Of a DNA stretch of 64,000 bases, positions 8,658-45,172 are shown in pieces. The DNA comes from Macrostomum lignano. Its lineage: Eukaryota. Positions within the stretch are counted from its first letter, which is position 1; every line of letters starts with the position of its first letter. Below the pieces are notes generated by a model. The model had not been told where the DNA came from, did not search any database, and worked only from the letters and a program-made list of their open reading frames with translations. A program made the position numbers and the translations under genes. The stretch covers positions 124,001 through 188,000 of the forward strand of contig NIVC01000011.1 in the NCBI GenBank assembly GCA_002269645.1, read 5' to 3'.

Positions 8658-8812
8658 CTTGAATTGGCCTAAAAATTATTCTACAACTTTGGTTCTCTGA
8701 CTTTGAGAGTTTCTACGCTTTGAGAGTGCTGGGTGGTTTTTTACAGGCGTAAAAACCTTGGTTTTAATTGCAATACACAAATTGGTGCTTGTTGGACCAA
8801 AGCAGCAGCGTT

Positions 8813-9789
8813 TCGTACCATAGACAAACACTCGTACCATAGACAAACACTCGTACCATAGACAAACACTCGTACCATAGACAAACACTCGTACCATAGA
8901 CAAACACTCGTACCATAGACAAAGACTCGTACCTTAGGCGAATGCTCGTACCAAAGACACAAACACTCGTACCATAGACAAACACTCGTACCATATACAA
9001 ACACTCATACCATAGACAAAGACTCGTACCATAGGCGAAGCTCTTACCAAAGACAAACACTCGTACCATAGACAAAGACTCGTACCATAGACAAACGCTC
9101 ATACCATAGAAAAAGACTCGTACCATAGGCGAATGCTCGTACCAAAGACAAACACTCGTACCATAGACAAACACTCGTACCATAGACAAACACTCGTACC
9201 ATAGACAAACACTCGTACCATAGACAAACACTCGTACCATAGGCGAATGCTCTTACCAAAGACAAACACTCGTACCATAGACAAAGACTCGTACCATTGA
9301 CAAAGACTCGTACCATAGACAAAGACTCGTACCTTAGGCGAATGCTCGTACCAAAGACAAACACTCGTACCATAGACAAAAACTCGTACCATAGACAAAC
9401 GCTCATACCATAGACAAAGACTCGTACCATAGGCGAATGCTCGTACCAAAGACAAACACTCGTACCATAGACAAACACTCGTACCATAGACAAACACTCG
9501 TACCATATACAAACACTCGTACCATAGACAAACACTCGTACCATAGACAAACACTCGTACCATAGGCGAATGCTCTTACCAAAGACAAACACTCGTACCA
9601 TAGACAAAGACTCGTACCATAGACAAACTCCCATACCATAGACAAAGACTCGTACCATAGGCAAAGACTCGTACCATAGACAAAGACTCGTACCAAAGAC
9701 AAACACTCATACCATAGACAAACTCTCATACCATAGACAAAGACTCGTACCAAAGACAAACTCTCATACCATAGACAAAGACTCGTACC
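8813..9789. repeat. 19-bp minisatellite (~50 copies), interrupted by the LTR element and resuming at 21424-21460
   Basis: Unit CTCGTACCATAGACAAACA with variants. It continues as TACCATAGGCAAATGCTCGTACCAAAGACAAAC right after the right LTR. Confidence 0.95.
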
Positions 9790-10825
9790 TGATGTGTTCC
9801 TTATTACCCGACTTCGGTAATCAAAGAACAATCACTTCTAGCTCTTTAGCTAGGCAACCCAGTAATTCAAACGAAAGTATTCAATTACCTTGACTTCTTA
9901 TGAGATATCTCTCCTTTTAGTCCTTCGTAGATCTCGTGTAGATCTCGATCTGTAGTTCAGGCCTGAATTCGACTCGACTTGTAGTCCTGGTCCGAGTTTC
10001 TCTTTTCTTCTTTTGCCGGCCGGTATCTGTCGTTCGGACCAATTAGAAGCTTCCAAATTAACAATGGGTACCCTGCGCCAAACTGCGGTTTAATATAAGC
10101 CTACTCCTTCTAGCAGTGCCTCTATGCACTCTAGGTATAGCTCCGGAAACCACTGATAGTCTTCTAAGATCTATCAGGGGCAGTCCTTCTGGAGACTGCA
10201 ACCAGTAGAGTCTAAACAGACTCAGGAGTCTCAACAGACTCAAACTAAACTCCAACGAGACGTCTCAAAACACAGGCGCAAATGAGTAAGGCTTACCGCA
10301 AGAACTCGACGAGTCTTCAGTAGGAAGTCCTGTAGTGGCTTCCTCTTCGGAGCTCTTCTCCTTCCGGAGGAATTGTGGCTCCTGGTCCGTTCCGGACCAC
10401 TTGTATTTATAGGCGTTCAGACCTCTCTCGAGGTCGTACATCACTGTCTTCGCAAATGTCAAAGGGTCACGATTCGGTGGCTGTCAAGCATGACAGGGTA
10501 GAAAGTTGCGCAACTAGTCTACTGTAAAAGCGCATGATTGGTTACCGTAGCTGGTAGACTTTGATTGGTTCATCCGGGTGCAACCCGAGTGCAAACCAAA
10601 TGATGACTTGAAGGTGGGGTTTGAATTGACAGTTGTTGGTCGCACGTGATTGGGTGATTTCTAAAATTAGCATGCTCGAGGTCTCTCTCTTCCTATTGGT
10701 TAGTCCGAATATACTTTAGTTCAATGCATACCTTCATTCATGCTCTTCAATTTACTACTAAATAAAATGTGTGAGTAGTACATTAACACTTTTATGTCTT
10801 CTTACGGGAGGTAGAACACTCTACA
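9790..10825 (-). repeat. 3' LTR (1036 bp)
   Basis: Direct repeat of 20387-21423. I saw three differences by eye (2 substitutions, 1 indel). Confidence 0.97.
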
Positions 10826-11046: not shown

Positions 11047-11259
11047 CTAACAATAGGCGCACTGCCGCAAACTTCTTCTACCTATCGGGCAATTCTGCCA
11101 GAGCTGAATATAATGTGAGTCGCTTAAACATTGTCCGCATATGCGATGTCTGTTTTCACAAATAATTGGTGGCTTGACAGCCAAGTCATCAGTTAAACAT
11201 ATTGGGCATTCGTAGAGTTGCTGTAGTTGGGGCGCCTGTTTGGACAGTGCGTTGCCCAT
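11047..11259 (-). CDS. 70-aa accessory ORF: N-myristoylation motif plus C3HC4-type RING finger
   Basis: MGNALSK fits MGxxxS. CPIC-x12-CENRH-x2-CGQC-x12-CPI(G)RR, where the last ligand codon GGT is one base from TGT. Strong start context ACAATGG. Confidence 0.7.
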   Translation of the reverse strand: MGNALSKQAPQLQQLYECPICLTDDLAVKPPIICENRHRICGQCLSDSHYIQLWQNCPIGRRSLRQCAYC

Positions 11260-11370: not shown

Positions 11371-13223
11371 TTAACGAGGTCGCAGATTGTAGCCATGTTG
11401 CTGGTTCTCGGTTGATGTTTGTGTCTCCTCGTGTTTTGTTGCGATGTGGCGGTTCGCCGAACGCGTGCGATCAGCGTTGTCTAGTGACGGTAAAAACGTT
11501 GTCGTGTCAGTGTTGATCTTCTTTAGTCGATGAATGCGCACGTAGAATTGGTGCTGATGAGGATCTTGCACATTGGCCAGGCGTGCCGTTGTCGGTGACG
11601 TTAGTTGGACCACTCGATATGGTCCTTTGTACTTCTGTGCGTGTTTGTGCGTCTGTTGCGGCGGATAGTGCAGGTAGACGATGTCGCCGGCTGTCAGAGT
11701 TGTCGATCTCGTGTCGGTGCCGGTGGTTAGAGCCACCTGATTGTCGATGTTGTGCTTGGCTACTTTCCATGCGAGGTGTAGTTGCGTGACGAACTTTTGA
11801 ATGGACGTCGGGACTTCCACATATTGCGATGGTAGTAGTTGCTGTGCCAATAGGTTTGGCGGCTGGAAGTCTCGCCCAAACATTAGAAAGAATGGCGTAT
11901 TGTCCGTTGATCGATGAATAGCGCTGTTGTAGGCCATTGTTACTGCTTGCAGATAGATGATCCAGTCGTCCGGTTGTTGATGCGCGAAGTGTGTAATCAT
12001 CTCGTGTAGGTTGCGGTGAAACCTTTCAACCATGTTCGCCTTCGGATTGTAGGTCGATGTGTAGATCTGCGTGATGTTGAGGATCTTCACCACTTGCTGA
12101 AAGAGTTGAGACGTAAACTGCGATCCATTGTCCGATGTGAGGTTCTTTGGCGTACCGTACTTGCAGATGATGTCGTTGAAGAAACTCATTGCCACTGTCT
12201 GAGCTGTGATGTCCGGTATTGGTATGGCAATAGCAAACTTTGAGAAAATGTCCAAGGCTGTTAGGATGTAGGTGTAGGCTATGCCATGGAGACAGCTCGG
12301 TGGCAGCGGTCCGGTGATGTCGATGCTGAGACAGTCCATAGTTGTTGACTTTGGTATCGATTGTAGCTGTGGTTTTTGTCGTCGTCCTGTCTTCGATGCT
12401 GCGCATGAGTGGCAGTTGTTGCAATACTGCTTGATGTCGCCATGCATGCTTGGCCAAAAGTAGTATTGCTCCACTCTTGCAACGGTTTTGGCTGCCGACA
12501 GGTGTCCAGCGAGTGGGTTGTCGTGCAGCTCGTTGAGAATTGCCTGCCTAAACGAATATGGCATGTAGATTTTAGGTTTGTTGTCACTCATCCAGTAGAG
12601 TCGTGACTTGTTGATTGTTAAATGTTGTCGCTGCTTGCGCAGGAATTTTCGTTCCACGGGGCTGAGCTTGATGTCCTTGTCGTTGTTTTTAACTGCTATG
12701 TAGAAGTTGTCGTGTTCCGTCTCATCCACCAATTCCTTGATGTTAGGAATTGGATGAATGGCGTTGACTTCGTAGGTTCTTGACAGAGCGTCCGCAGCCT
12801 TGTTAGTAATTCCTGGTTTGTAGACGAGCTTGTAGTTGTAGTCCTGGATCTTGAGTGTCATCCTGATGAGTCGGTTGTTTGTTTGTCCTTTTGTAGTTAC
12901 GACGTAGGTCAGCGGTGCGTGATCTGTGCGTACTATCGTCTGTAATGGAGATCCATAGATGTAGTAGTGAAACTGTCGTAGGGCGAACAGAACTCCTAGT
13001 AGTTCTCGTTCCGTAGCTGACCATTTTGTCTCATTCGGTTTAAGTGCTCGACTGACGTAGGCTATAGGTCGTTCCTTTTTGTCTTCAGTTTCCTGTAGTA
13101 GGACTGCTCCGAGTCCCGTTCCTGAGGCGTCTGTCTCGATGATGAAGGGTTTGTCGAAGTCCGGATGCTGTAGCAGTGCGTCTGATGTCAGCTGTCGTTT
13201 GATTTCGTCAAAACTTTCTTGTT
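11371..13223 (-). CDS. pol: pol 3' part: RNase H and integrase (HHCC, DDE, GPY/F)
   Basis: Open frame from 13212: FDEIKRQL...IETDASGTGLGAVL...ERELLGV...TDHAPL; HDNPLAGH...CNNCHSC; SIDITGP...SDNGSQF...VERFHR; KYKGPYRV. Confidence 0.95.
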
Positions 13224-14213
13224 CGTGACGGTAAAAACGTTGTCGTGTCAGTGTTGATCTTCTTTAGTCGATGAATGCGCACGTAGAATTGGTGCTGATG
13301 AGGATCTTGCACATTGGCCAGGCGTGCCGTTGTCGGTGACGTTAGTTGGACCACTCGATATGGTCCTTTGTACTTCTGTGCGTGTTTGTGCGTCTGTTGC
13401 GGCGGATAGTGCAGGTAGACGATGTCGCCGGCTGTCAGAGTTGTCGATCTCGTGTCGGTGCCGGTGGTTAGAGCCACCTGATTGTCGATGTTGTGCTTGG
13501 CTACTTTCCATGCGAGGTGTAGTTGCGTGACGAACTTTTGAATGGACGTCGGGACTTCCACATATTGCGATGGTAGTAGTTGCTGTGCCAATAGGTTTGG
13601 CGGCTGGAAGTCTCGCCCAAACATTAGAAAGAATGGCGTATTGTCCGTTGATCGATGAATAGCGCTGTTGTAGGCCATTGTTACTGCTTGCAGATAGATG
13701 ATCCAGTCGTCCGGTTGTTGATGCGCGAAGTGTGTAATCATCTCGTGTAGGTTGCGGTGAAACCTTTCAACCATGTTCGCCTTCGGATTGTAGGTCGATG
13801 TGTAGATCTGCGTGATGTTGAGGATCTTCACCACTTGCTGAAAGAGTTGAGACGTAAACTGCGATCCATTGTCCGATGTGAGGTTCTTTGGCGTACCGTA
13901 CTTGCAGATGATGTCGTTGAAGAAACTCATTGCCACTGTCTGAGCTGTGATGTCCGGTATTGGTATGGCAATAGCAAACTTTGAGAAAATGTCCAAGGCT
14001 GTTAGGATGTAGGTGTAGGCTATGCCATGGAGACAGCTCGGTGGCAGCGGTCCGGTGATGTCGATGCTGAGACAGTCCATAGTTGTTGACTTTGGTATCG
14101 ATTGTAGCTGTGGTTTTTGTCGTCGTCCTGTCTTCGATGCTGCGCATGAGTGGCAGTTGTTGCAATACTGCTTGATGTCGCGATGATGTCGCGTGGATCA
14201 AGAGTGGAGCAAT
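13224..14213 (-). other. Templated insertion in pol: 957-bp copy of the element's own integrase region plus a complex junction
   Basis: 13225-14181 matches 11484-12440 (offset 1741). It is flanked by the direct repeat ACTTTCTTGTT at 13213-13223 and 14214-14224. 14199-14216 is the reverse complement of 12462-12479. Confidence 0.9.
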
Positions 14214-16303
14214 ACTTTCTTGTTGCTTTTGTGTCCAATTCTCCTGCTTCCATTTGTCGAACTTGAGCAGGTCGTACAGCGGCTTTGCTGTCTTCGCGAA
14301 GTTGGGTAAGAACTTTCGGAAGTATTGCGCAAGTCCAAGAAATGATTGGACCTTCGTTTTGCTAGTTGGCGTAGGAAACTTTTTCACTTTATCCACGTTG
14401 TCTGGGTCCGGTGAAATTCCTTTGGCTGTCACCTGATGTCCCAGGTAACGCACGTTGTCTCGGAAGAATTTGCATTTAGTTGGTTGTAGCTTCAGACCTT
14501 GACGTTGTATAAGCGCGAGGGCCTTCTCCGTCGCTTCATAGAGTCGTTCGAAGTCTTCTCCGTAGGCCAAGATGTCGTCAACATAGTGCAACAGGTTCGT
14601 GCATCCTGCAAGCATGTATGCTGTTAGTCGGCTCATCGTTGCTGGGCTGTTGCTGAGTCCCATCGGCGATCGATTGTACTCGTATACTTGTCCATTGTAG
14701 GTTTTGAAAGCCGTGTACTGTCGTGACTCTTTCTCGATTTCAATTTGCCAAAATCCATGACGTAGATCGAACACTGTGAACAATTTTGCCGTGTTGAGCT
14801 TTGCTAGTAGTTCGGAGATCTTCGGTAGGCTTTGCTGATCCGTCGGTATGTACTTGTTCAGTAGTCTGAAGTCACATACGAGTCGTCTTTCGTTAGTCTC
14901 CTTCTTTTGCACCAAGAGACATGGTGATGAGTATGCTGAAATGGCTTTGCTGATGATGCCGTGTTTCAGCATTTTGTCGATAATCTCATCGAAGTGCTGT
15001 TGCAGATGCTTGGCGATCGGGTACGGTTTGCACTGAATTGGTTCCGTGTGCGGCAGAAGTTTGATTTCCTGTTTGATGTCCTTGGCTCGTCCGATGTCGT
15101 AGTCATGGTGGCAGAAAGCGTCGTTGTACTTCCACAACAGCTGTCGAACTTTCCTCTTTTGCTGTTCCGTAATCGGGCTGTCATCCAAATTGATCTTCTT
15201 TTGAAATTCTTCCTCTGTTAGTCGTGGAGTCGCTTGCTCAATCAGCATAACCGATGCTTGGGTGTTGAGATGACCGATGCACATTCCTTGTCGTAGATGA
15301 ACCGTTTCTGTGTTCGGGTTGAATATTTGTACTGGCAGCTGTTTATCTTTTGCAACCAGTACTAGTGCCGTAGGCATCATAATTTGGTGTTTAGCCGTGA
15401 CTCTTCTGTTTGGGTCGAATATCATTGCTTCCTCCGTTGCGTTAGTTGCCTTTGCCTTTATCCAGCAGGCGCTCTCCGGTTGGATGATGACATCTTGTTG
15501 CAATGTTACTTTTGGTAGTACTCGGATCTGGTTGATCAATGGTTGTTCTACCGAGTCGATCTTAAACGTTTGCTTATTGAAGTCGAAGGTCAATGGTAGT
15601 CTAAGCTGCTTGAACGTGTCGATGCCAACAATAACGTCCTGGTTTGGGAGTCTGTCGATGACGTACGATGGAACTGTCAAATGTTTATTAGCGATTCTTA
15701 AATCAATGTCGGCTTTTCCCAGAATGTTTAGCGAATGTCCTCCTGCTCCTGCAACTGCGATTGTTGCTGGCCGTAGAGCAAGTCGTAGCTTGTTGCACAG
15801 TTGTTTTGATATAACTGTGATGGAGCTGCCGGAGTCGAGTAGCGCTCGACATGGTAGATTGTTGATTACCACTTGAGCCATGGCTTTGCCAATTTCGGCG
15901 TGTAGAGTACATACGTAGTTCTCTGGCCATTTTGGGTCTTGCTGTTCTGCTTGATAGTTGGGTGGTTGTATTCTTGGTGCCGTTGGTGTTGTCGGAATCG
16001 ATGGATATAGCCGCGTTGCTAGTGTCGGTTGCCCTTGAACCTCACGATGTGCAGTTTCTGTTAGTTCTAAACTGTTGTCGCCTTCCGTTGTCGTTCTTTG
16101 CATTATGGCATTAACTGTCTTCTTAGCTCTTGGACAAGTTTGACTGAAGCACCGTACGATTGACGAAATGATGAAGATTGCCGTGACAATCCACACAATG
16201 CAAGCACCGTAGAAGATGAATCCTTGATAGAGACTTCCTCTTCCATTGAGCAGCTCCCAGAAGCTGTTTGTCCAAAATGATTTGATGGCGCTGTCCATTG
16301 AAA
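14214..16303 (-). CDS. pol: Env membrane-proximal region and TM anchor, linker, aspartic protease, spacer and reverse transcriptase, all in one frame
   Basis: SFWTNSFWELL...FIFYGACIVWIVTAIFIISSIVRCF (TM, ~16220-16150); ALLDSGSSITVI (~15835); RLVCDFRLLN, DLRHGFWQI, PMGLSNSPAT, YVDD (14574-14585). Confidence 0.93.
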
Positions 16304-18551
16304 CAAGGACGGGAAATCTTCCTGTCCGGTTCCTTTGTCCTTTCTTGTGAACAGCTGGTGAATCATCTTGCGTTGGGTGATGAACGCTTGCAAGAAGTCG
16401 TTGATCGTCCATCCTGGTGTTATCTCGTCAAGTTGGATATCGGCGAATGGCGTATACTTCGTTCTGTTGAATCGGATTTTCAAATCCTCCATGTCGTAGT
16501 TTTCGTCGACGATTACTTCCGGTTCTGTGATGTTTGCTGTCGTTCCAGTTGTTTTGATGACGTGTAGTGCATTGTCCAGTTGATAATAGTTTGCTGCCGT
16601 GGTGCAAGGTCTCGGTATTGCGGTGCCAACGATGATGTTGTGTACCGTGTCCAAGAATCCCTGAATTCGTTTTCCTTCGTAGAACGCTTCAATCCTTGGC
16701 TTGTCGTAGCAGGTTGTTGACGTGTTCGACGGCAAGATGTTAAAGTGCTGTATCGGCGTGCACTTGTATATCAACAGATGCTCGTATATTGGAACTGCCA
16801 AAACGTTCGTCATTCCGGTGATTTTACGAAAAGTCATCGTAGGGTTGACATAGTAGTTTTGTCTGGCATAATTTAAGTTGATTGCGTGCATTTTGCAAGT
16901 TAGCTGGACCAGTGTTCGATGCAAGTGGTTTAACTGGTTGTGTAGATTGTGATCCAAAGCCGTTATCTTTGCTGACAGTAGTCGGTTTGACACCAGTTTG
17001 GGACGTTCGATGTCACGTCGTCGTCTGTTCTGTTGTTCCTGCTGTTGATACGTTCCGTTGATGATCGCCAGAAAGGTTTGTTTGTCGTCATCTTTTACGT
17101 AGACTGGTATCTCTTGTTCCGAGATGAATAGTGTCTTGTCTGTATCCTTGCATTTCAGTTTTTGCTCGACTGGTTTCTTTTGAAATGTCAGTGCCAAGTC
17201 TCCTGACTTTGCCAAAAACGTGTTTGACAGTAGTCCTCCTTCAACTGTGTGATACTTTTGAAGCTTGCAGTCAATTTCCGGCTCAACTTCCCACGCGAAG
17301 AAGTATTGTCGTGACTTAGATGGTTCTTCATATCGTGAGTCGCCTCTGCGTATAATTTGCCATCGATAGTCTTGATGATATGTTGGACTCAACGGTAAGC
17401 TGTATAGTTCCTCATTCCGCAGTATCGGCGTTGGACACCATCCTTTGCTGTATCGGCAGTCACTTAATTGCAGTTGTAGCGACTCCATTTTTTCAAAAGG
17501 ATTGTGGTAGAATGGAATATTCCTGATTAGGTAACTGTTTCGTGTCATGTAGTTAGTCCATGCTTCCGAAAAGTGTACATATCGTCCGTTTGCTGAGTTC
17601 TTCGTTCGGTAAAGTTGTGCCTCCCCCACTTTCTCATCCGGTTCTAGCTGACCATCCTTTGAGAACAGTGTTTGGTTCCATTGTAGACATTCAGCGTGCG
17701 ACACATGTAGTTCGTGTTGCCAAAATCGAATTCTGTTCCACTGTCCTCGCCAAACTTTTTCCACTAGGTGCTTGTCTCTAAAGCACACTATTCCGAGTTG
17801 TCGATGCTTCTTGATGTTAGCTTTGTAGAGATCAATTGTGATCTTCTTTGGCTTCGTCTGGTTTGTCTTGAAGTAGCTGCATTTGATGTCGGTTGGTATC
17901 TTGTAGATCATCGGTTGGATATGCGCATCCGTTGGACATATCATTGGTTTCTCCATTGCTGTTGCTTTGGTGACTACTGCCGTCAGTAGTATTATGATGA
18001 TCCAGAATATCCAGAATCGCCATTTCCTGAACGTTGCCGTTGTCTTTGCTGGCATTGGCTGCGGCTGCCATTCGTTATCTTCTGCGTCCGCATCGTATTC
18101 TTCCTCTTGTTCCATTGGCGTTTCCGAGCGCAAGGCATCCGATTCGTTCCGCTGCTTGTCGTCTTCATCATTTTCTTCCTTGCTTTCTTCCGATGTTGTA
18201 GTTTTGTCACTCCATTGTCTGCGGTACCTTACTTCGGCCTTGTAGTCGACCGTTTGAATGTAGGCTTCACCATTTCGTTTATATCGGATCTCGTAGCATT
18301 GATCGCTGTCGGAGCTTAGATTTCTTTCTTCCATTCCTTTGTGCCTTCCGTCTTCATGTTCTTTGTCGGCGGCTTGGTTGTCATCAGCGTCATTCTGCAT
18401 CTCATAATCGTGATCGCTGCTTTCTTCTTGCTGTTCTTCTTCCATCTCTGTATTTCCGTCGTTGCTTCTTTCTTTGTCATCCTTCGTTGCCAGTTCTTTG
18501 TCGTTGCCTTTGTTTGTTTCTTCTTTTCTTTCACTGATGTCGCTTGCAATG
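16304..18551 (-). CDS. env: Acidic linker, internal signal/TM segment and envelope-like glycoprotein ectodomain
   Basis: Hydrophobic FWIFWIIIILLTAVVTKATA (18016-17957). Cys-rich ectodomain with N-glycan sequons (NQT x2, NGT, NTS, NIT, NRT). Furin-type RRRR/D at 17015-17026. Confidence 0.8.
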
Positions 18552-19690
18552 TTTTTTCTGTGCTCACTTCTGTCTTTTCTTCTTCGCTGTCAATGTTAGT
18601 TTCTTTCATTTCGACCATGCTGATGTTTTTTGTCTTTTCGCTGCTCTCCGCATCGAGCCAGTCGATTTCATTGATAGTGAAGTCCATTTCCAAGTCGTCT
18701 ATCGTGAAGACTTGCTGCTCTTGCTGTTCGCTTTCCGGTGTGTACGTGATGGCGTTTGCATATCGTTGCATCGCTTGCGTTGGTTGCTTGGGCATGTATC
18801 TGGCGTTTCGCGGTCTGTAGCCATTGTTTCCTAAGCGTTTCGTGTTTTGCTGCTGCCAATTTTGATGCTGCTGTTGCCATGGTTTTTGCGGCTTCCGTCT
18901 GTTGAATGGCTGTCGCGGCATATCATTTCTTGTTGACCGATGAGGACAATGTATTTGGTAGTGTCCTTCTCGTCCACAGTAATAGCATCTGGCTTGGGCT
19001 CGTTCATTTTGTCTTTTTTGTTCGGCGATAACGGCTGTTTGATGTTGCATCAGTTTGTTTAGTTGCTGTGTCAGTTTCTGCACTTCTGTGTTGCCGGTTG
19101 TCATTAGTGGAGCGCTTGCTTCCCACTGCATTCCGCACCGTAAAAGGTCTTCCTCGGTTTCAATGTTTCGCGCAAAAGTCTATCCGCAGTGACGGCTGTG
19201 CATTGTTTATTACGTGCAGGATGAGGTTTTGTTCACGGTCCATCAATCGTTGTCGCTCTCTTGCGGCTAACTCCGCTGCGCCTGGAGGTGGCTGATCCGC
19301 AGCTGGCAGCGTTGGCTGATGCAGTGCCTTAATTATTTGACGTATATCGTCCACGAAGGTCAGGAAGGATTCTGTTGGCTGCATCCGTCTGTTATGCAAC
19401 TTGTGCAGTAGCACTGACCTGTTTGTGCCACAGCGGTTGAAGTGTGCGCGCAGTTGAATGATTAATGCTGGGTAGTTTTGCTGTGTTGCCGCGCCTAGTT
19501 TACCATAAATCTCTCGTGCAGTGCCTTGGAGGAGTGGTGGCAACAGTTGCGCTTTTTCTGGATTTTGTAGGTTGTATTCCCTACATACCAGGTCAAAATG
19601 ATCAACAAAGGTGTTAAAGTCTTTTTCCATAGAAAAGGTGCCAACTGTCTCTTTGATATCTCTGTGCACCGTTGGATTGCGCCGCGCCAT
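18552..19690 (-). CDS. gag: Gag: capsid-like domain and CCHC zinc knuckle, split by a 1-nt indel at ~19175
   Basis: FNTFVDHFDLVC...KAQLLPPLLQGTAREIY capsid-like segment; CYYCGREGHYQIHC knuckle; Q/N/R-rich nucleocapsid tail. Confidence 0.88.
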
Positions 19691-20373
19691 GTTGTTGATG
19701 GGATAGAACGGTAGCTCTAGGTCTGGGTCGATTTGTAATGGATCTTCCAGTGTGGTGTTTCTTTCGAAATAAACTTCGGTTGTAACTGATTGTCTCGCGG
19801 CGCTTTTGACACCTCAATTTGTTATGTCTGACCTTGAACGGAATTCGGCTTTTGGCTGCTTTTTCTGACCTCTTATTCGCTGGCTGATTTTCGCACTTAT
19901 GCGGCGTCCCGCAAAGTGTATCTTTAAAGTGCTTGAAGTGCAGCTGCTTCTTGCTTTTTTCAAAGGCCTTTCTTGTCTTCGTGACGTGCCTTGTCACGTT
20001 TTATCAAATTTCGGTTTGTTTTAGCTTTCGTCAAGTGTTTTTAATTTCGGTTTTGTTTTAGTGTGTATTGATTATTTTTCGGTTTGTTTTCAGTGTACCG
20101 GACGTTGTTTTCGGTTTTGTTTAAGGTTTACTCTTGCTCGAGCTCGTTAAAAACAAAAATTTAACACGCGTGCTCAAACGTTACTCAAAATTGACAGGTA
20201 CTCAAGCCTGTATACCTAAGCTTTTACTCGAGTTTCAAATCGTACAAAAATCGAAAAGTGTCGAAAAGTGTTACCTCTAACACGTGCGCGCAAAATTAAT
20301 GAAGTCGCTCTTTCGTCACTTTACAATAGCTTGGCCAGGCTATTGCTCAAAAGTTTGAGTAGTGCCGAGAGGG

Positions 20374-20384
20374 CGAGATCACCA
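20374..20384 (-). other. Putative primer-binding site
   Basis: TGGTGATCTCG starts 2 nt after the 5' LTR CA end. TGG is complementary to tRNA CCA. Confidence 0.6.
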
Positions 20385-20386
20385 AT

Positions 20387-21423
20387 TGATGTGTTCCTTA
20401 TTACCCGACTTCGGTAATCAAAGAACAATCACTTCTAGCTCTTTAGCTAGGCAACCCAGTAATTCAAACGAAAGTATTCAATTACCTTGACTTCTTATGA
20501 GATATCTCTCCTTTTAGTCCTTCGTAGATCTCGTGTAGATCTCGATCTGTAGTTCAGGCCTGAATTCGACTCGACTTGTAGTCCTGGTCCGAGTTTCTCT
20601 TTTCTTCTTTTGCCGGCCGGTATCTGTCGTTCGGACCAATTAGAAGCTTCCAAATTAACAATGGGTACCCTGCGCCAAACTGCGGTTTAATATAAGCCTA
20701 CTCCTTCTAGCAGTGCCTCTATGCACTCTAGGTATAGCTCCGGAAACCACTGATAGTCTTCTAAGATCTATCAGGGGCAGTCCTTCTGGAGACTGCAACC
20801 AGTAGAGTCTAAACAGACTCAGGAGTCTCAACAGACTCAAACTAAACTCCAACGAGACGTCTCAAAACACAGGCGCAAATGAGTAAGGCTTACCGCAAGA
20901 ACTCGACGAGTCTTCAGTAGGAAGTCCTGTAGTGGCTTCCTCTTCGGAGCTCTTCTCCTTCCGGAGGAATTGTGGCTCCGGGTCCGTTCCGGACCACTTG
21001 TATTTATAGGCGTTCAGACCTCTCTCGAGGTCGTACATCACTGTCTTCGCAAATGTCAAAGGGTCACGATTCGGTGGCTGTCAAGCATGACAGGGTAGAA
21101 AGTTGCGCAACTAGTCTACTGTAAAAGCGCATGATTGGTTACCGTAGCTGGTAGACTTTGATTGGTTCATCCGGGTGCAACCCGAGTGCAAACCAAATGA
21201 TGACTTGAAGGTGGGGTTTGAATTGACAGTTGTTGGTCGCACGTGATTGGGTGATTTCTAAAATTAGCATGCTCGAGGTCTCTCTCTTCCTATTGGTTAG
21301 TCCGAATATACTTATAGTTCAAAGCATACCTTCATTCATGCTCTTCAATTTACTACTAAATAAAATGTGTGAGTAGTACATTAACACTTTTATGTCTTCT
21401 TACGGGAGGTAGAACACTCTACA
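20387..21423 (-). repeat. 5' LTR (1037 bp)
   Basis: Direct repeat of 9790-10825, followed on the minus strand by the PBS and gag. Confidence 0.97.
21001..21296 (-). promoter_or_regulatory. LTR U3 promoter: TATA box and four CCAAT boxes
   Basis: Minus-strand TATAAATA at 21001-21008. CCAAT at 21134-38, 21161-65, 21246-50 and 21292-96. All are mirrored in the 3' LTR. Confidence 0.65.
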
Positions 21424-21733: not shown

Positions 21734-24700
21734 ATGCTGCTAAAATTTCTGTCAATTAGTTTTTTTATTGGATACTTTATTGATACTGGCGACTGGTTTT
21801 AGGATAAATATAATTGAACAAAAATTTTCAACAATAAGCAACTCAACTGGAAGAGTATACCGTTGAACTTTGTTATCGAGCAACTGCCGAATAAAAATGA
21901 TTTAAAACTAGCAATCAGCCTTTGGTGCAGCAGTCAAAATTCGGCCGGTCGTATTGTACTGCAAAGCAATTAATCTGCCATTTTTGTTGCGCGACGAAAC
22001 ATTCTGTGAGACGGAGTTTCCTGTGAAGATACGGACCACCGATTCTGAATGGTTTAAGTCGGATAACCAAACCAAGTATAGTTTGAGACTTTCTATATAC
22101 AGAGAATCCAGAAATCAAGCAAGCTTGAACTTTAAGGACACGTTCCGAAAAAGTTTGAGACTGAAATTTTTCTTCATTAGCACCGAGTGGAGCCTGGAAA
22201 CCAACAGCCTGTACCTGTGGAATTGGGAATCTGCGTTTAGCAGCGCAAACGTGAGGCCAACCCATCCTCAGCACCAGACTAATAGATACTTTTTGACTGA
22301 CGCAGCAATCAACTTGATAATGAACTCTGAATGGCCAAGATCGGGCAACTCTTTCGAATCAATTCAGTTTATAGAGCCAAGCTTAGTACATCGGATCAAC
22401 CATACAACAGAGTACGTTCGAAACTATATAAACATCGAGGCTATCATGCTACTGGGATTTGGAATTGCATCTGAATGTTGGACTTCTCGTCCCGAGTACA
22501 CAACTGTGTACGCATCTCGCAAGGCTGGCACTCTTGAGCAGCATTCGATTTCATGCTCAAAGTTTGTTATTTGGACAGGGAAACAGGAAAGCTGACATTC
22601 TCGCGGCATGGACTTAGCCGTGCGCTGGTTCGCTTCAACGAGCTCAATCGCAAGCAGCTTGTGTGGCGCGAAAAAAAGGAGTTCTATGATAATTACATCC
22701 TGAGGATTTGCGCTGGTATTCAGCTACAACATAATATGCGACCAGTTACCGAATACCGAAGTGTGCTCACGGTAAAGAATCCGAATTTGGGCTATAAGGT
22801 ACTCGGAGTAGACACGCATGAATGCGAGATTGTCGGTTCGAGTACGAAACGAGTAACTTTTTTCTCCGATTCCGGAATCAACCAACTATAGTATGCCCGA
22901 TTGTCTGCTTCAACTCGGGAGCAATTCGTTTTTAGCAGAGGCGACGTAATTTTTTTTATTAGAGGCAGGGGGGTTGTGTGCACCCTGGCGCACTTTAAGC
23001 GACATAGGCACACAACCGGCGAGAGGCATTACTGCCCATTCCGCCGACTCCCCTGAGCAGGCATACAAGCGCGCGGATACGTACGCAGGCACACAATCAC
23101 ACAGGAGTGTACAGCGGCCCTAACTTTATATTATCGTTAGGCATGTACACTTCACTGCGCCTTGGGGGTTGGCTCTCAAGGCCGTTAATTGCACGAGCAG
23201 AGCCAAGCCGAGATTCCAATTCAGCCCCAAATTAATGTGACTGCATTTGGAATCGAGCCTGGGTCGCTGGCACACCAGAGCAGCTGCGCTACCGCTGGGC
23301 TACGGCCCCCCTGAGGCGACGTAATACTTAGACCGAACTCATATCGCGAACTCAACTTAGCGATACAAAACGGGCTACATCAATGACAATGTTTTTGCTT
23401 ACAAAACAAGCAACGTCATAGAAATCCGAGGCGCCCTAACCCACGAAGATGCAGGTCAGTACCAGTGCTCGGCTGGAGGAAAAAAAGTCACCTTTGAAGT
23501 AAGCGTCGTTTTAATGCCACGGTTTACCGAGAAACTGCTTACTGGCGAAAAGATGAATGGTGAGCTGCCCGAAAGAGTCTACGCTATGGAAGGTGAAGGC
23601 TACTACATTAGCTGCACCGTTTTCTATTCAGGATTACATCGTTCTATAACGCTGGAGCCAGAGTTTTATCTAAGATTGCACGGTTCTATCAGGGGCATCA
23701 ACAACTGGACAAAAAGTACTTTTGGAGAGTTTAAAACCAAAGTTAAGACAGCCGAAGCTGAAATAGACACAAGACACAATAGCAAAACAATCACTCTGAC
23801 TGTTGGCCGTATTCCCAAAGTTTGTAGTCCGCAACGCAATTTATTTAATCATCGATATTTGTGCAACGCAGCTGCTTCCTCAGAAGATGCACGTCGCTAC
23901 GGCTTGATGGACTATTCGACGCAGAGTGCTGCAGATGTATATTATCTAGCAAGACCTCGACTAAATGACTTTGATATCACTGTGAGCTACTGCTGTCTGA
24001 GACACTGTCCAACAAGAAATTATTTTGGCGCAAATTGTACCATAACGGTTTCATTGACGCAGGGTGTGCTTAGCTTCTTGAAAACTATCGGACTGATCGT
24101 TGAGACAGGGCTGCTATCATCGCAGCCGGAGTTGACTGATGTCATCTTGAAGCCCTCCAGGATAACTATCACGATTGGAAACCCCGGCTTGCTTAAGTCA
24201 GAGCAGCAGAGGAGAAGTCTACTAGCGGTCGCTCCGATTTTTCGCTATAAGAACGGCAATTCAATAGTCAGTTTGAGTTCGTTTCGAATGATTCGTAGCA
24301 ACGAATCGAACAGCAGCGATGACAGAAAGTGCCTTGCTAACCCAGCGTGCCTATATTCAACTCGGTTTGAGAAAACCCTGGCCAGCCAGCTTACTCTTGC
24401 CGAAATTATTATCTTTAAGGCCAAGACTGCTTCGTTGACTGTACCTTCATGGATCAGTAGTGGTCTGCTCAACCGACAACTGTGGCTCCAGTAAATTTTT
24501 CAAAGGAATCGGTTCGTTCTTTAACAACTAGAACTAATAAAAACATGCGGGAAAAATTAGCAACAAAAACAACAGCTGAGGCAGGAGCAACAAATACGCC
24601 TCCGACAGCAATAGAAGCGAGAACAACGAAGACGCCAAGATCGACAGTAGAACCAAGAACGACAGAGACACCAACAACAACCGAAACAAGAACAACAAAG

Positions 24701-30036: not shown

Positions 30037-30290
30037 CTTATATATATTAACGCCTTCAAGGACCAACTCCCAAGACCCAGTGAAGTGTACATGCCTAACG
30101 ATAAATAAAGTCAGGGCCGCTGTACACTCCTGTGTGACTGTGTGCCTGTGCGTATGGCTGCGTACGTATCCGCGCGCTTGTGTGCCTGCATGCTTAGGGG
30201 AGTCGGCGGAATGGGCAGCAATGCCTCTCGCCGGTTGTGTGACAATGTCGCCTAAAGTGCGCACAGCACCCTGTCTGTAATAACTAACTA
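30037..30290 (+). mobile_element. 5'-truncated copy of the SINE at 22951-23312, opposite orientation, intronic
   Basis: CAGTGAAGTGTACATGCCTAACGATAA...GGGGAGTCGGCGGAATGGGCAG...GTCGCCTAAAGTGCGC matches the reverse complement of ~22970-23190. Confidence 0.85.
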
Positions 30291-44515: not shown

Positions 44516-45172
44516 TATACTTTTTTTGCGATTGAATTCGTCCAAACTGCAAAACCTTTCGTCCACAAATGCTTTCTTAATGGGAGCTAAATTTAGGTCA
44601 TACCATAGACAACTGTGTTCACGCAAAACGGTTCATCCAGTTTGTAAAACATTTCGTCCCCTAGACTAGAGACCGAGTGAAATGTTCCTACCATAGTTAA
44701 CACCCAATTGATAGTTCGCTTTTGCTACCACTACAGCTACAGCAACGCATATCTTCCATTCTGAACCCGGCAAAACAGTCGAAGATGAACCGAGGCCTGG
44801 CGGATGCACATTTTGAAGAGAGAGGTCGAAGCTGCACTGCACGTGATTACACAGGAGAAGTGCCAGCAATGGACCAATCACACTGTGGGTTACTACGGCC
44901 GCTGTTTGGACTACGAAGACATTTTGAACTAACATTCTAACAAGAGACACTGTTTTTGCTTTGTTCAATATCTCGTGATATCAGATAAAGTCGCTCCGTT
45001 TAGCTGTTAGCTGTTTGGACGAAGGGTTTAGACGAAATGTTTTACAAACTGGATGAACCGTTTTGCGTGAACACAGTTGTCTATGGTATAATCTAAATTT
45101 AGCTCCCATTAAGAAAGCGTTAGTGGACGAAAGGTTTTGCAGTTTGGACGAATTCAATCGCAAAAAAGTATA
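44516..45172. mobile_element. Foldback MITE with ~145-bp TIRs and TA TSD
   Basis: 44518-44660 and ~45025-45170 are reverse complements (TACTTTTTTTGCGATTGAATTCGTCC... / ...GGACGAATTCAATCGCAAAAAAGTA), flanked by TA. Confidence 0.85.

Follow-up and report, generated by a model that had tools for sequence, protein, structure and literature searches.

Elements with the gene order GAG-ENV-POL and an env of the HSV/gB type have been described in nematodes, bryozoans and flatworms (Chary & Hayashi, eLife, PMC13524379). They are not monophyletic, and in some members the ectodomain is flanked by two transmembrane segments (TMs); one flatworm element, Platyhelminthes_Rhabditophora_Mlig_errantivirus_2, is listed with 16 copies, and the passage of that study that cites nematode endogenous retroviruses (NERVs) describes their ENV and POL as flipped (PMC13524379). 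The Atlas belpaovirus (bioRxiv 10.64898/2026.03.22.711591) has a 2828-aa polyprotein with Gag, Pol and Env, but differs in being a BEL/Pao element with Gag-Pol-Env order and a class II phlebovirus-like env.

The window analysed here, a stretch of 64,000 nucleotides from Macrostomum lignano, contains a Ty3/gypsy LTR retrotransposon that is young and multi-copy, and its features are as follows.

20387..21423, minus strand: 5' LTR, 1037 bp, TG...CA ends (LTR-LTR alignment)
20373..20384, minus strand: primer-binding site (tRNA PBS), reverse complement GCGAGATCACCA, as listed for Mlig_errantivirus_2
18946..19690, minus strand: gag, a helical capsid-like region and CCHC knuckle (18987-18946), with a break at ~19167-19185 (ORF, profiles, sisters)
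18030..18715, minus strand: acidic linker, ~226 aa, 32% D/E, fast evolving, with a break at ~18545 (stop-free sister)
17957..18025, minus strand: TM1, predicted internal signal/anchor with basic N-side, Trp-rich core and A-T-A before the ectodomain (hydropathy 2.19)
16224..17956, minus strand: class III (gB/Monjiviricetes-type) ectodomain, furin-type RRRR at 17026-17015, break at ~16326 (profile, model, Foldseek)
16161..16223, minus strand: TM2, predicted stop-transfer anchor (hydropathy 2.43; flanking K/R 1 versus 4)
15954..16010, minus strand: late-domain-like cluster LYPxI, PTAP, PPxY in the TM2-protease spacer (motif scan)
15606..15875, minus strand: aspartic protease (PR; PF13650, E 1.6e-10)
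14214..15030, minus strand: reverse transcriptase (RT; nearest solved structure, Ty3 RT)
13213..14213, minus strand: 1001-nt insertion, mostly copied integrase DNA of the same element (self-comparison, read contigs, sisters)
12838..13212, minus strand: RNase H (RH; domain profile match)
11371..12561, minus strand: integrase (IN), with H2C2, core and C-terminal region, ending at the stop codon (ORF and domain profiles)
11047..11259, minus strand: small 3' ORF, 70 aa, MGxxxS N-terminus and RING-like Cys/His (ORF, sister comparison)
9790..10825, minus strand: 3' LTR, 1036 bp (LTR-LTR alignment)

The LTRs are identical at 1034 of 1036 aligned bases, and a 4-bp target-site duplication, GGTA, is present on both flanks of the element. 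The PR-RT-RH-IN order of pol is that of Ty3/gypsy elements (Metaviridae), and in a ranking by similarity, with no tree behind it, the RT is closest to Ty3 RT (E 1e-46), followed by foamy virus (1e-37), caulimovirus and MLV. The 19-bp satellite bordering the window copy was considered as an insertion target and rejected, as none of the 19 located LTR flanks matches it (one of 20 was not located); their best similarity is 10-13 of 19, versus 17 for the window copy. Several sister LTR flanks are other tandem repeats.

The family shares with the GAG-ENV-POL errantiviruses both the gene order and a gB-type env lying between hydrophobic segments. A preliminary description knew of no described element with this arrangement, but allowed that one might have been reported; it is already published, including from flatworms, and is therefore not a discovery (PMC13524379). 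From the host, PBS, length and layout we infer that the family is very likely Mlig_errantivirus_2 itself, which shares its layout and 12-nt PBS and comes from the species of a 95% identical UniRef match. The LTR-to-LTR distance is 9727 in Mlig_errantivirus_2 versus 9594-9632 in the window subfamily, and 9729 between the members of a tandem pair from a sister subfamily. The main text of PMC13524379 was searched for 'single ORF' or 'polyprotein' applied to the three genes and neither was found; in the literature search 'gag-env-pro-pol' gave no match, and gag-env-pol with gypsy and retrotransposon gave only PMC13524379.

The minus-strand order given in the preliminary description (gag-like region, CCHC knuckle, acidic linker, TM1, ectodomain, TM2, protease, RT, RNase H, integrase) is borne out, and TM2 does share a stop-free frame with protease and RT (ORF 13767-16427). 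Its proposal of one Gag-Env-Pol polyprotein also holds for the family, in which natural stop-free copies occur that need no repair. Five of the 28 full-span sister copies have no stop from gag into RT, and three of those five are open to the integrase stop; the predicted product of 2439 aa is found at exactly that length in two of the five natural ORFs, with the third running unbroken from the gag Met as far as the normal stop. The other 23 carry at least one break within the 5.1 kb examined. Among 29 sisters (one without gag), both junction anchors lie in one stop-free frame in 25 at CA-NC, 14 at NC-ectodomain and 16 at ectodomain-PR. Single chains were also recovered by motif scan among 49 env homologs, four with CCHC-env-TM-PR-RT and six with CCHC-env-TM-PR, including a 2852-aa chain from a second Gag-Env-Pol family of the same host; a Panagrolaimus homolog has env-PR-RT-IN in one chain (Pfam), and a public protein of the host species fuses env to pol. 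PMC4604429 was examined as a source for the public 1488-aa polyprotein, and no mention of an LTR or polyprotein was found in it. Intact members of the family almost certainly have a one-ORF architecture, encoding ~2440 aa.

Sacco et al. (J Gen Virol, 2022) reportedly described NERVs as encoding gag-env-pro-pol in one continuous ORF, with an env resembling that of Nyamiviridae and with some small additional ORFs. The window family likewise has one continuous ORF, and a nyamivirus G stands near the top of its fold search. Its host, however, is a flatworm and its nearest named relatives are flatworm proteins, with one env-PR-RT-IN homolog from a nematode; we regard it as working like a NERV but do not file it as one.

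The window copy is a family member that has been damaged or mis-assembled, and its frame breaks and its 1001-nt duplicate of integrase DNA are essentially confined to it. The sisters differ from it in frame at the first break (~19167-19185) in 28 of 28 covering copies, at the second (~18545-18546) in 26 of 28, and at the third (~16326-16327) in 29 of 29. The positions originally named for these breaks were not confirmed, however, with the second lying ~6-12 nt downstream and the third ~25 nt upstream of the place given. Nor do the proposed one-base repairs match natural copies; in place of long homopolymers, runs at the first and third breaks are only 2-4 long, and the junction peptides that the repairs yield there do not match the natural reading. 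Fixed programmed frameshifts at the three breaks are ruled out, since sister copies read through these places. Breaks recur in the TM2-protease spacer, at ~16127 and ~16080, in eight of 30 copies, and with similar recurrence at four further places. The two spacer sites lie in the place expected of a regulated frameshift.

Positions 13219-14188 within the insertion are 99.6% identical to 11477-12448, and this duplicate of integrase DNA splits the connection between RT and RNase H. The earlier view that the 1001 bp are an insertion is borne out by short-read contigs, which skip exactly 1001 nt in four of four runs. The spacing from env to the 3' region is 3720-3735 nt in all 19 sisters with both matches on one contig, versus 4730 in the window. 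The insertion is either private to the window copy or an assembly artefact.

The glycoprotein between the CCHC knuckle and protease belongs to the class III fusogens, and purifying selection acts on it. Its profile matches herpesvirus gB (E 3e-12), with the Pfam env match falling below its cut-off (23.5 versus 27 bits). A monomer model of the ectodomain (pLDDT 76.5, pTM 0.53) retrieves gB with Foldseek at E 4e-21 (TM ~0.4-0.47) and nyamivirus and rhabdo-like G at E 1e-24, and dN/dS is 0.07-0.11 and 0.03-0.08 in the two halves of env (three pairwise comparisons). TM1, called like TM2 by Kyte-Doolittle hydropathy only, is in frame in 26 of 30 loci, with flanking K/R counts of 4 versus 1. N-glycosylation sequons give no discrimination as a topology marker, there being five before TM1 and five in the ectodomain.

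The label 'capsid' fares less well; the CCHC knuckle is present, but the capsid assignment itself is weak. A DUF1759 match in the gag region (E 0.002) is below cut-off, and a single-sequence fold model has low confidence (pLDDT 49) and no structural match. The region is 28% identical to the N-terminal region of the second Gag-Env-Pol family, and the Gag N-terminus is MARR, without Gly2.

All three motifs of the late-domain-like cluster are found in 28 of 30 loci, the remaining two being frameshifted there. In shuffled versions of the 96-aa spacer all three co-occur at a frequency of 3e-5, albeit with motifs chosen after this tail had been seen. Depending on the anchor rule, P[TS]AP or PPxY is present in five or four of 16 homolog tails, which are not phylogenetically independent, against a shuffle mean of 0.42, and none of 2000 shuffles and two of 3000 attain that count; the motifs are absent from 11-12 of the 16. 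The tail dS among sisters (0.01-0.06) is too low to show selection on them. These motif classes are treated as late domains in PMC8402826, where those of HIV-1 p6 likewise lie just before protease; in the window family they lie in the Env tail and not in Gag, and the likeness is not one of shown homology. The cluster has a little under an even chance of being functional. Gypsy or errantivirus was not mentioned among the matches listed for late domain/ESCRT/PTAP literature.

In contrast to classical insect errantiviruses and retroviruses, no separate env ORF was found 3' of pol, and the 3' ORFs are RING-type. The 70-aa ORF is a shortened form of a double-RING ORF of 144 to >152 aa in other subfamilies, and one of the 3' RING ORFs has a predicted myristoylation-type N-terminus. 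Arenavirus Z is likewise a small MG-starting RING protein (rank 17, score 0.88), which we treat as a lead and not as shown homology; the full-length 3' protein of the element differs in having two RING-like units. No homolog of the second RING ORF was found among 144 candidates, which is not evidence of its standing alone, and a precedent for a RING ORF3 was sought in PMC5408684, which has no RING mention. The terms late domain, ESCRT, budding and RING were not found in the main text of PMC13524379, and the late-domain-like cluster and 3' RING ORFs are testable additions not found in the text searched.

How such a chain could be handled is suggested by its anatomy, together with established rules of ER translocation. 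The cytosol/lumen/cytosol topology put forward earlier is consistent with the biased charges beside each of the two TMs and with the A-x-A after TM1, and a two-TM topology with a signal-peptidase split is quite probable. In flavivirus and alphavirus structural polyproteins capsid precedes an internal signal that serves the envelope, and these provide as a working analogy, with no homology implied. Gag and the acidic linker would be made in the cytosol, TM1 would insert as an internal signal-anchor with a signal peptidase cut after A-T-A, and the 578-aa ectodomain would be translocated until TM2 halted transfer, so that PR-RT-RH-IN would stay cytosolic as the Env tail. Two membrane proteins would result, Gag-linker-TM1 and Env-TM2-Pol. 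The TM1 tether would stand in for a myristoylated matrix domain. Env trimers would carry Pol into particles as cargo, and clustering of these trimers could make protease dimerise and become active. Furin would cleave at RRRR, and budding would be served by ALIX, Tsg101 and Nedd4-type ligases drawn in by LYPxI, PTAP and PPxY. The 1:1:1 stoichiometry suggested earlier applies to synthesis from one ORF, but is doubtful for the particle; signal-peptidase cleavage would part Gag from Env-Pol, and equimolar packaging therefore does not follow. Overall, the probable explanation is a young GAG-ENV-POL element of gB type whose single chain is split across the membrane and which may bud by an ESCRT-type route.

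An alternative is that the genomic ORF is single but that most of its output (Gag by itself, or Gag-Env lacking Pol) is made from spliced or recoded RNAs, with the full polyprotein a minor species. A Ty3-type shell has ~540 CA, and equimolar Pol would exceed what the capsid could hold; Copia, whose Gag comes from a spliced RNA, is a precedent, and the spacer breaks described above point the same way. However, 22 of 30 copies lack these spacer breaks, and breaks recur elsewhere too. No GT..AG joint was seen among the joints listed from two possible RNA runs, weak evidence as contigs show neither splicing nor expression level. That the late motifs are encoded in the Pol frame speaks for the in-frame chain as the functional one, and we consider predominant splicing or recoding improbable. 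It is still less probable that the gB-like block is kept and translocated only to anchor Gag and Pol to internal membranes, with no role in budding or entry. Infectious particles have not been shown for elements of the GAG-ENV-POL kind, but a full-length class III ectodomain, a furin site and dN/dS of ~0.1 or less far exceed an anchor's needs, and the late-domain-like motifs point to budding. A glycoprotein block foreign to the family, whether from a secondary insertion or from chimeric assembly, is refuted, the private 1001-nt insertion of the window copy notwithstanding, by 40 of 40 scored genome matches spanning the env query at 91-100% identity, by the same flanks in 28 full-span sisters, by short-read contigs that cover the block in four of four runs with pieces crossing both env junctions, and by the public env-pol protein of the host.

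Within the favoured explanation of one chain split across the membrane, a novel budding route is conceivable, although we think it rather unlikely as a whole. Gag would ride on a cleaved signal-anchor, the replication enzymes would be packaged as the tail of a class III fusogen, that tail and not Gag would bear all three classes of ESCRT late domain, and a separately encoded, N-myristoylated RING protein would help as a matrix or ubiquitin ligase in the manner of arenavirus Z. If true, a retroviral replicase would be assembled on the principles of a negative-strand- or flavi-type virus, a route undescribed for reverse-transcribing elements. The single Gag-Env-Pol chain raises the questions of how it is split across the membrane, how an excess of Gag over Pol is obtained, and whether gB-type errantiviruses pass from cell to cell, and this family suits those questions, being young and present in many copies in a laboratory flatworm.

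A complete Ty3/gypsy LTR retrotransposon copy occupies part of the window:

21423 to 9790, minus strand: complete LTR element, with LTRs, target duplication and PBS

The element's two LTRs measure 1037 and 1036 bp, have TG...CA ends and are identical at 1034 of 1036 aligned bases; a GGTA duplication lies on both flanks, and the PBS begins two bases past the 5' LTR. Ty3 RT is the nearest solved structure to the element's RT, and of the element's parts the capsid is the one most weakly assigned. The host site is a 19-bp tandem repeat (a satellite; 8736-9789 and 21424 onward), and LTRs at other genomic loci (L040-L059) lie outside that satellite, several of them, as judged by eye, beside other short tandem repeats. 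Two further repeats were seen in the surroundings. A pair of long inverted repeats about 7 kb apart and ∼85% alike (22985-23189 and 30046-30266) encloses ORFs at 23361-24494 and several minisatellites, and is possibly a DNA transposon remnant; a MITE-like 137-nt inverted repeat (44522-44658 and 45031-45167) is 97% complementary, with its arms 372 nt apart.

Searching the genome with the env region as query gave 93 candidates, 40 of which were scored, and all 40 matched at 91-100% identity across its length. Thirty loci of 5.1 kb were retrieved, comprising the window copy, 28 full-span sister copies, and one truncated at the edge of its contig. Among the full-span sisters, five of 28 are stop-free from gag into RT over the whole stretch, and for these five the DNA downstream was also read. 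Three stay open in the same frame as far as the normal integrase stop, and two of these three encode 2439 aa from the gag methionine; the other two break in RNase H and late in integrase, respectively. The preliminary description had proposed a single Gag-Env-Pol polyprotein from a copy with three frame breaks; it was largely right, and single-polyprotein coding is established on natural copies, three of which carry one continuous frame from the gag methionine to the integrase stop.

At least one break within the 5.1 kb is present in 23 of the 28 sisters. Some recur, both in the spacer between the second hydrophobic segment (TM2) and the protease (∼16127 and ∼16080, four copies each) and elsewhere (∼17950 in four copies; ∼17491, ∼17848 and ∼18546 in three each). 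A frameshift in this spacer would be a natural route to Gag-Env without Pol; however, the spacer breaks are missing from 22 of the 30 copies and recurrence is general along the element rather than special to the spacer, and for these reasons we read the recurrent breaks as shared errors or dead sublineages.

At the window copy's own breaks the frame differs in 28 of 28 sisters at ∼19167-19185, in 26 of 28 at ∼18545-18546 (a break common to two other copies), and in 29 of 29 at ∼16326-16327. Short-read contigs from all four runs differ in length from the window at ∼18545 and ∼16325; the first break does not appear among the contig differences listed. The positions and junction peptides given in the preliminary description are therefore approximations. 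As for the 1001-nt insert, it duplicates integrase DNA of the same element at 99.6% identity; contigs skip it in four of four runs, it is missing at all five downstream loci, and by spacing it is absent from 19 of 19 sisters. Breaks and insert may be either assembly error or real decay.

The window's own 548-aa ectodomain translation matches Pfam Monjiviricetes_fusion under the cut-off and has an Atlas score of 0.90. A profile built from it and 27 homologs gave 13 hits in the PDB, every one of them a herpesvirus gB chain (best E 2.9e-12). The predicted structure (pLDDT 76.5, pTM 0.53) shows the long central helix of a class III fusogen, and a fold search matched this model to gB (E 4e-21, TM about 0.4-0.47) and also to nyamivirus, rhabdo-like and chu-like G proteins. 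In three pairwise comparisons between subfamilies, the part of env preceding the furin site has a dN/dS of 0.07-0.11 and the part following it 0.03-0.08, similar to the protease (0.03-0.05), and the acidic linker gives 0.34-0.41. Between subfamilies (L011, L023, L024, L029) dS varies by ORF region from 0.01 to 1.08, and the subfamilies are therefore recombinant mosaics whose gag/linker, env-N, env-C and pol differ in history.

K/R residues number four on the N-side and one on the C-side of TM1, the hydrophobic segment before the ectodomain, and one and four, respectively, at TM2; TM1 and a downstream A-T-A are preserved in 26 of 30 loci, the remaining four being frameshifted. Given the positive-inside rule and the (-3,-1) rule for signal peptidase sites, this charge bias and the A-T-A make a two-TM topology most likely, with cytosolic Gag, luminal ectodomain and cytosolic Pol, and signal peptidase would split the chain into Gag-TM1 and Env-TM2-Pol. 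N-glycosylation sequons, five on each side, do not discriminate topology. Equimolar synthesis need not imply equimolar packaging.

A crude motif scan of 49 env homologs, whose counts are lower bounds, picked up a second TM in 19 of them, env-TM-PR (protease) in 7, CCHC-env-TM-PR in 6 and CCHC-env-TM-PR-RT in 4. Pfam searches of 23 long chains confirmed that in several of them env is followed by PR, RT, RNase H and integrase, those named being a second Macrostomum lignano family (2852 aa) and a Panagrolaimus superbus protein; one hit is a BEL/Pao element with env at the end. Macrostomum lignano has at least one further Gag-Env-Pol family (protein chains P0014, of 2852 aa, P0062, P0063 and P0013), ∼30% identical in env. 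The only longer-protein match in a word-index search, a 1488-aa Macrostomum lignano 'retrovirus-related polyprotein' at 95% identity, is a chain in which a portion of env is already linked to pol.

Two same-strand copy pairs lie 9729 and 10787 nt apart (G000:C2447:187487-199314 and G000:C669:6493-19381), which fits tandem elements with a common LTR, and each of several other contigs has three or more 3'-region matches. In two runs, contigs run straight from where the 5' LTR region ends into mid-env, without gag (17162/17194 to 20266/20387); this joint is probably an internally deleted derivative existing as DNA.

Nematode elements with a continuous ORF were reportedly described by Sacco in 2022. 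The flipped env/pol order is credited to Sacco 2022 in PMC13524379, where errantiviruses of nematodes, bryozoans and flatworms are described as non-monophyletic, with gB-type env only and GAG-ENV-POL order. The same source tables the flatworm element Mlig_errantivirus_2 with 16 copies, and its PBS 12-mer is identical to that of the window element (PMC13524379). The arrangement is already known, probably for the very family of the window element. A term search of the main text of PMC13524379 gave no match to any of single ORF, polyprotein, late domain, ESCRT, budding and RING. The belpaovirus Atlas has a single polyprotein in Gag-Pol-Env order (bioRxiv 10.64898/2026.03.22.711591).

The cytoplasmic-side tail predicted for Env contains a late-domain-like cluster:

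16010-15954, minus strand: LYPSI, PTAP and PPNY within 19 residues of the 96-aa TM2-protease spacer

The three late-domain classes are all represented, as in a published motif set (PMC8402826), the cluster's YPxI fitting YPXnL only loosely. All three motifs are present in 28 of 30 loci and occur together in 3e-5 of shuffles. Depending on the anchor rule, P[TS]AP or PPxY is found in 5 or 4 of 16 homolog tails vs 0.42 expected, the lower count amounting to 4 hits in 1557 tail residues vs 6 in 22847 elsewhere, homolog statistics that ignore kinship and concern motifs picked after viewing the window element's tail. Most homolog tails are without late motifs, and in the second Macrostomum lignano family the corresponding spacer contains PSAP and LYPTL. 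That the Env tail directs ESCRT-dependent budding, which would then be steered from Env, is a possibility falling just short of probable.

A small ORF follows pol:

11259-11047, minus strand: 70-aa ORF with MGNALS start and RING-like Cys/His

Sister forms (among the loci L031:1-456 (-) and L034) are 70, 89, 144 and more than 152 aa long, the longer ones having two RING-like units. One subfamily has a second RING-like ORF of 212 aa before the LTR (L036:345-983 (-)), and a search for its sequence homologs found none. Pfam matches of the 3' RING ORFs fall under the cut-off; Atlas neighbours of the 3' ORF are viral RING proteins (0.91), and its likeness to arenavirus Z (Atlas score 0.88) is a lead only. 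MGxxxS is a myristoylation motif, and we infer that the product may be myristoylated. What keeps this family of interest is its late-domain-like cluster, together with the 3' RING ORFs.
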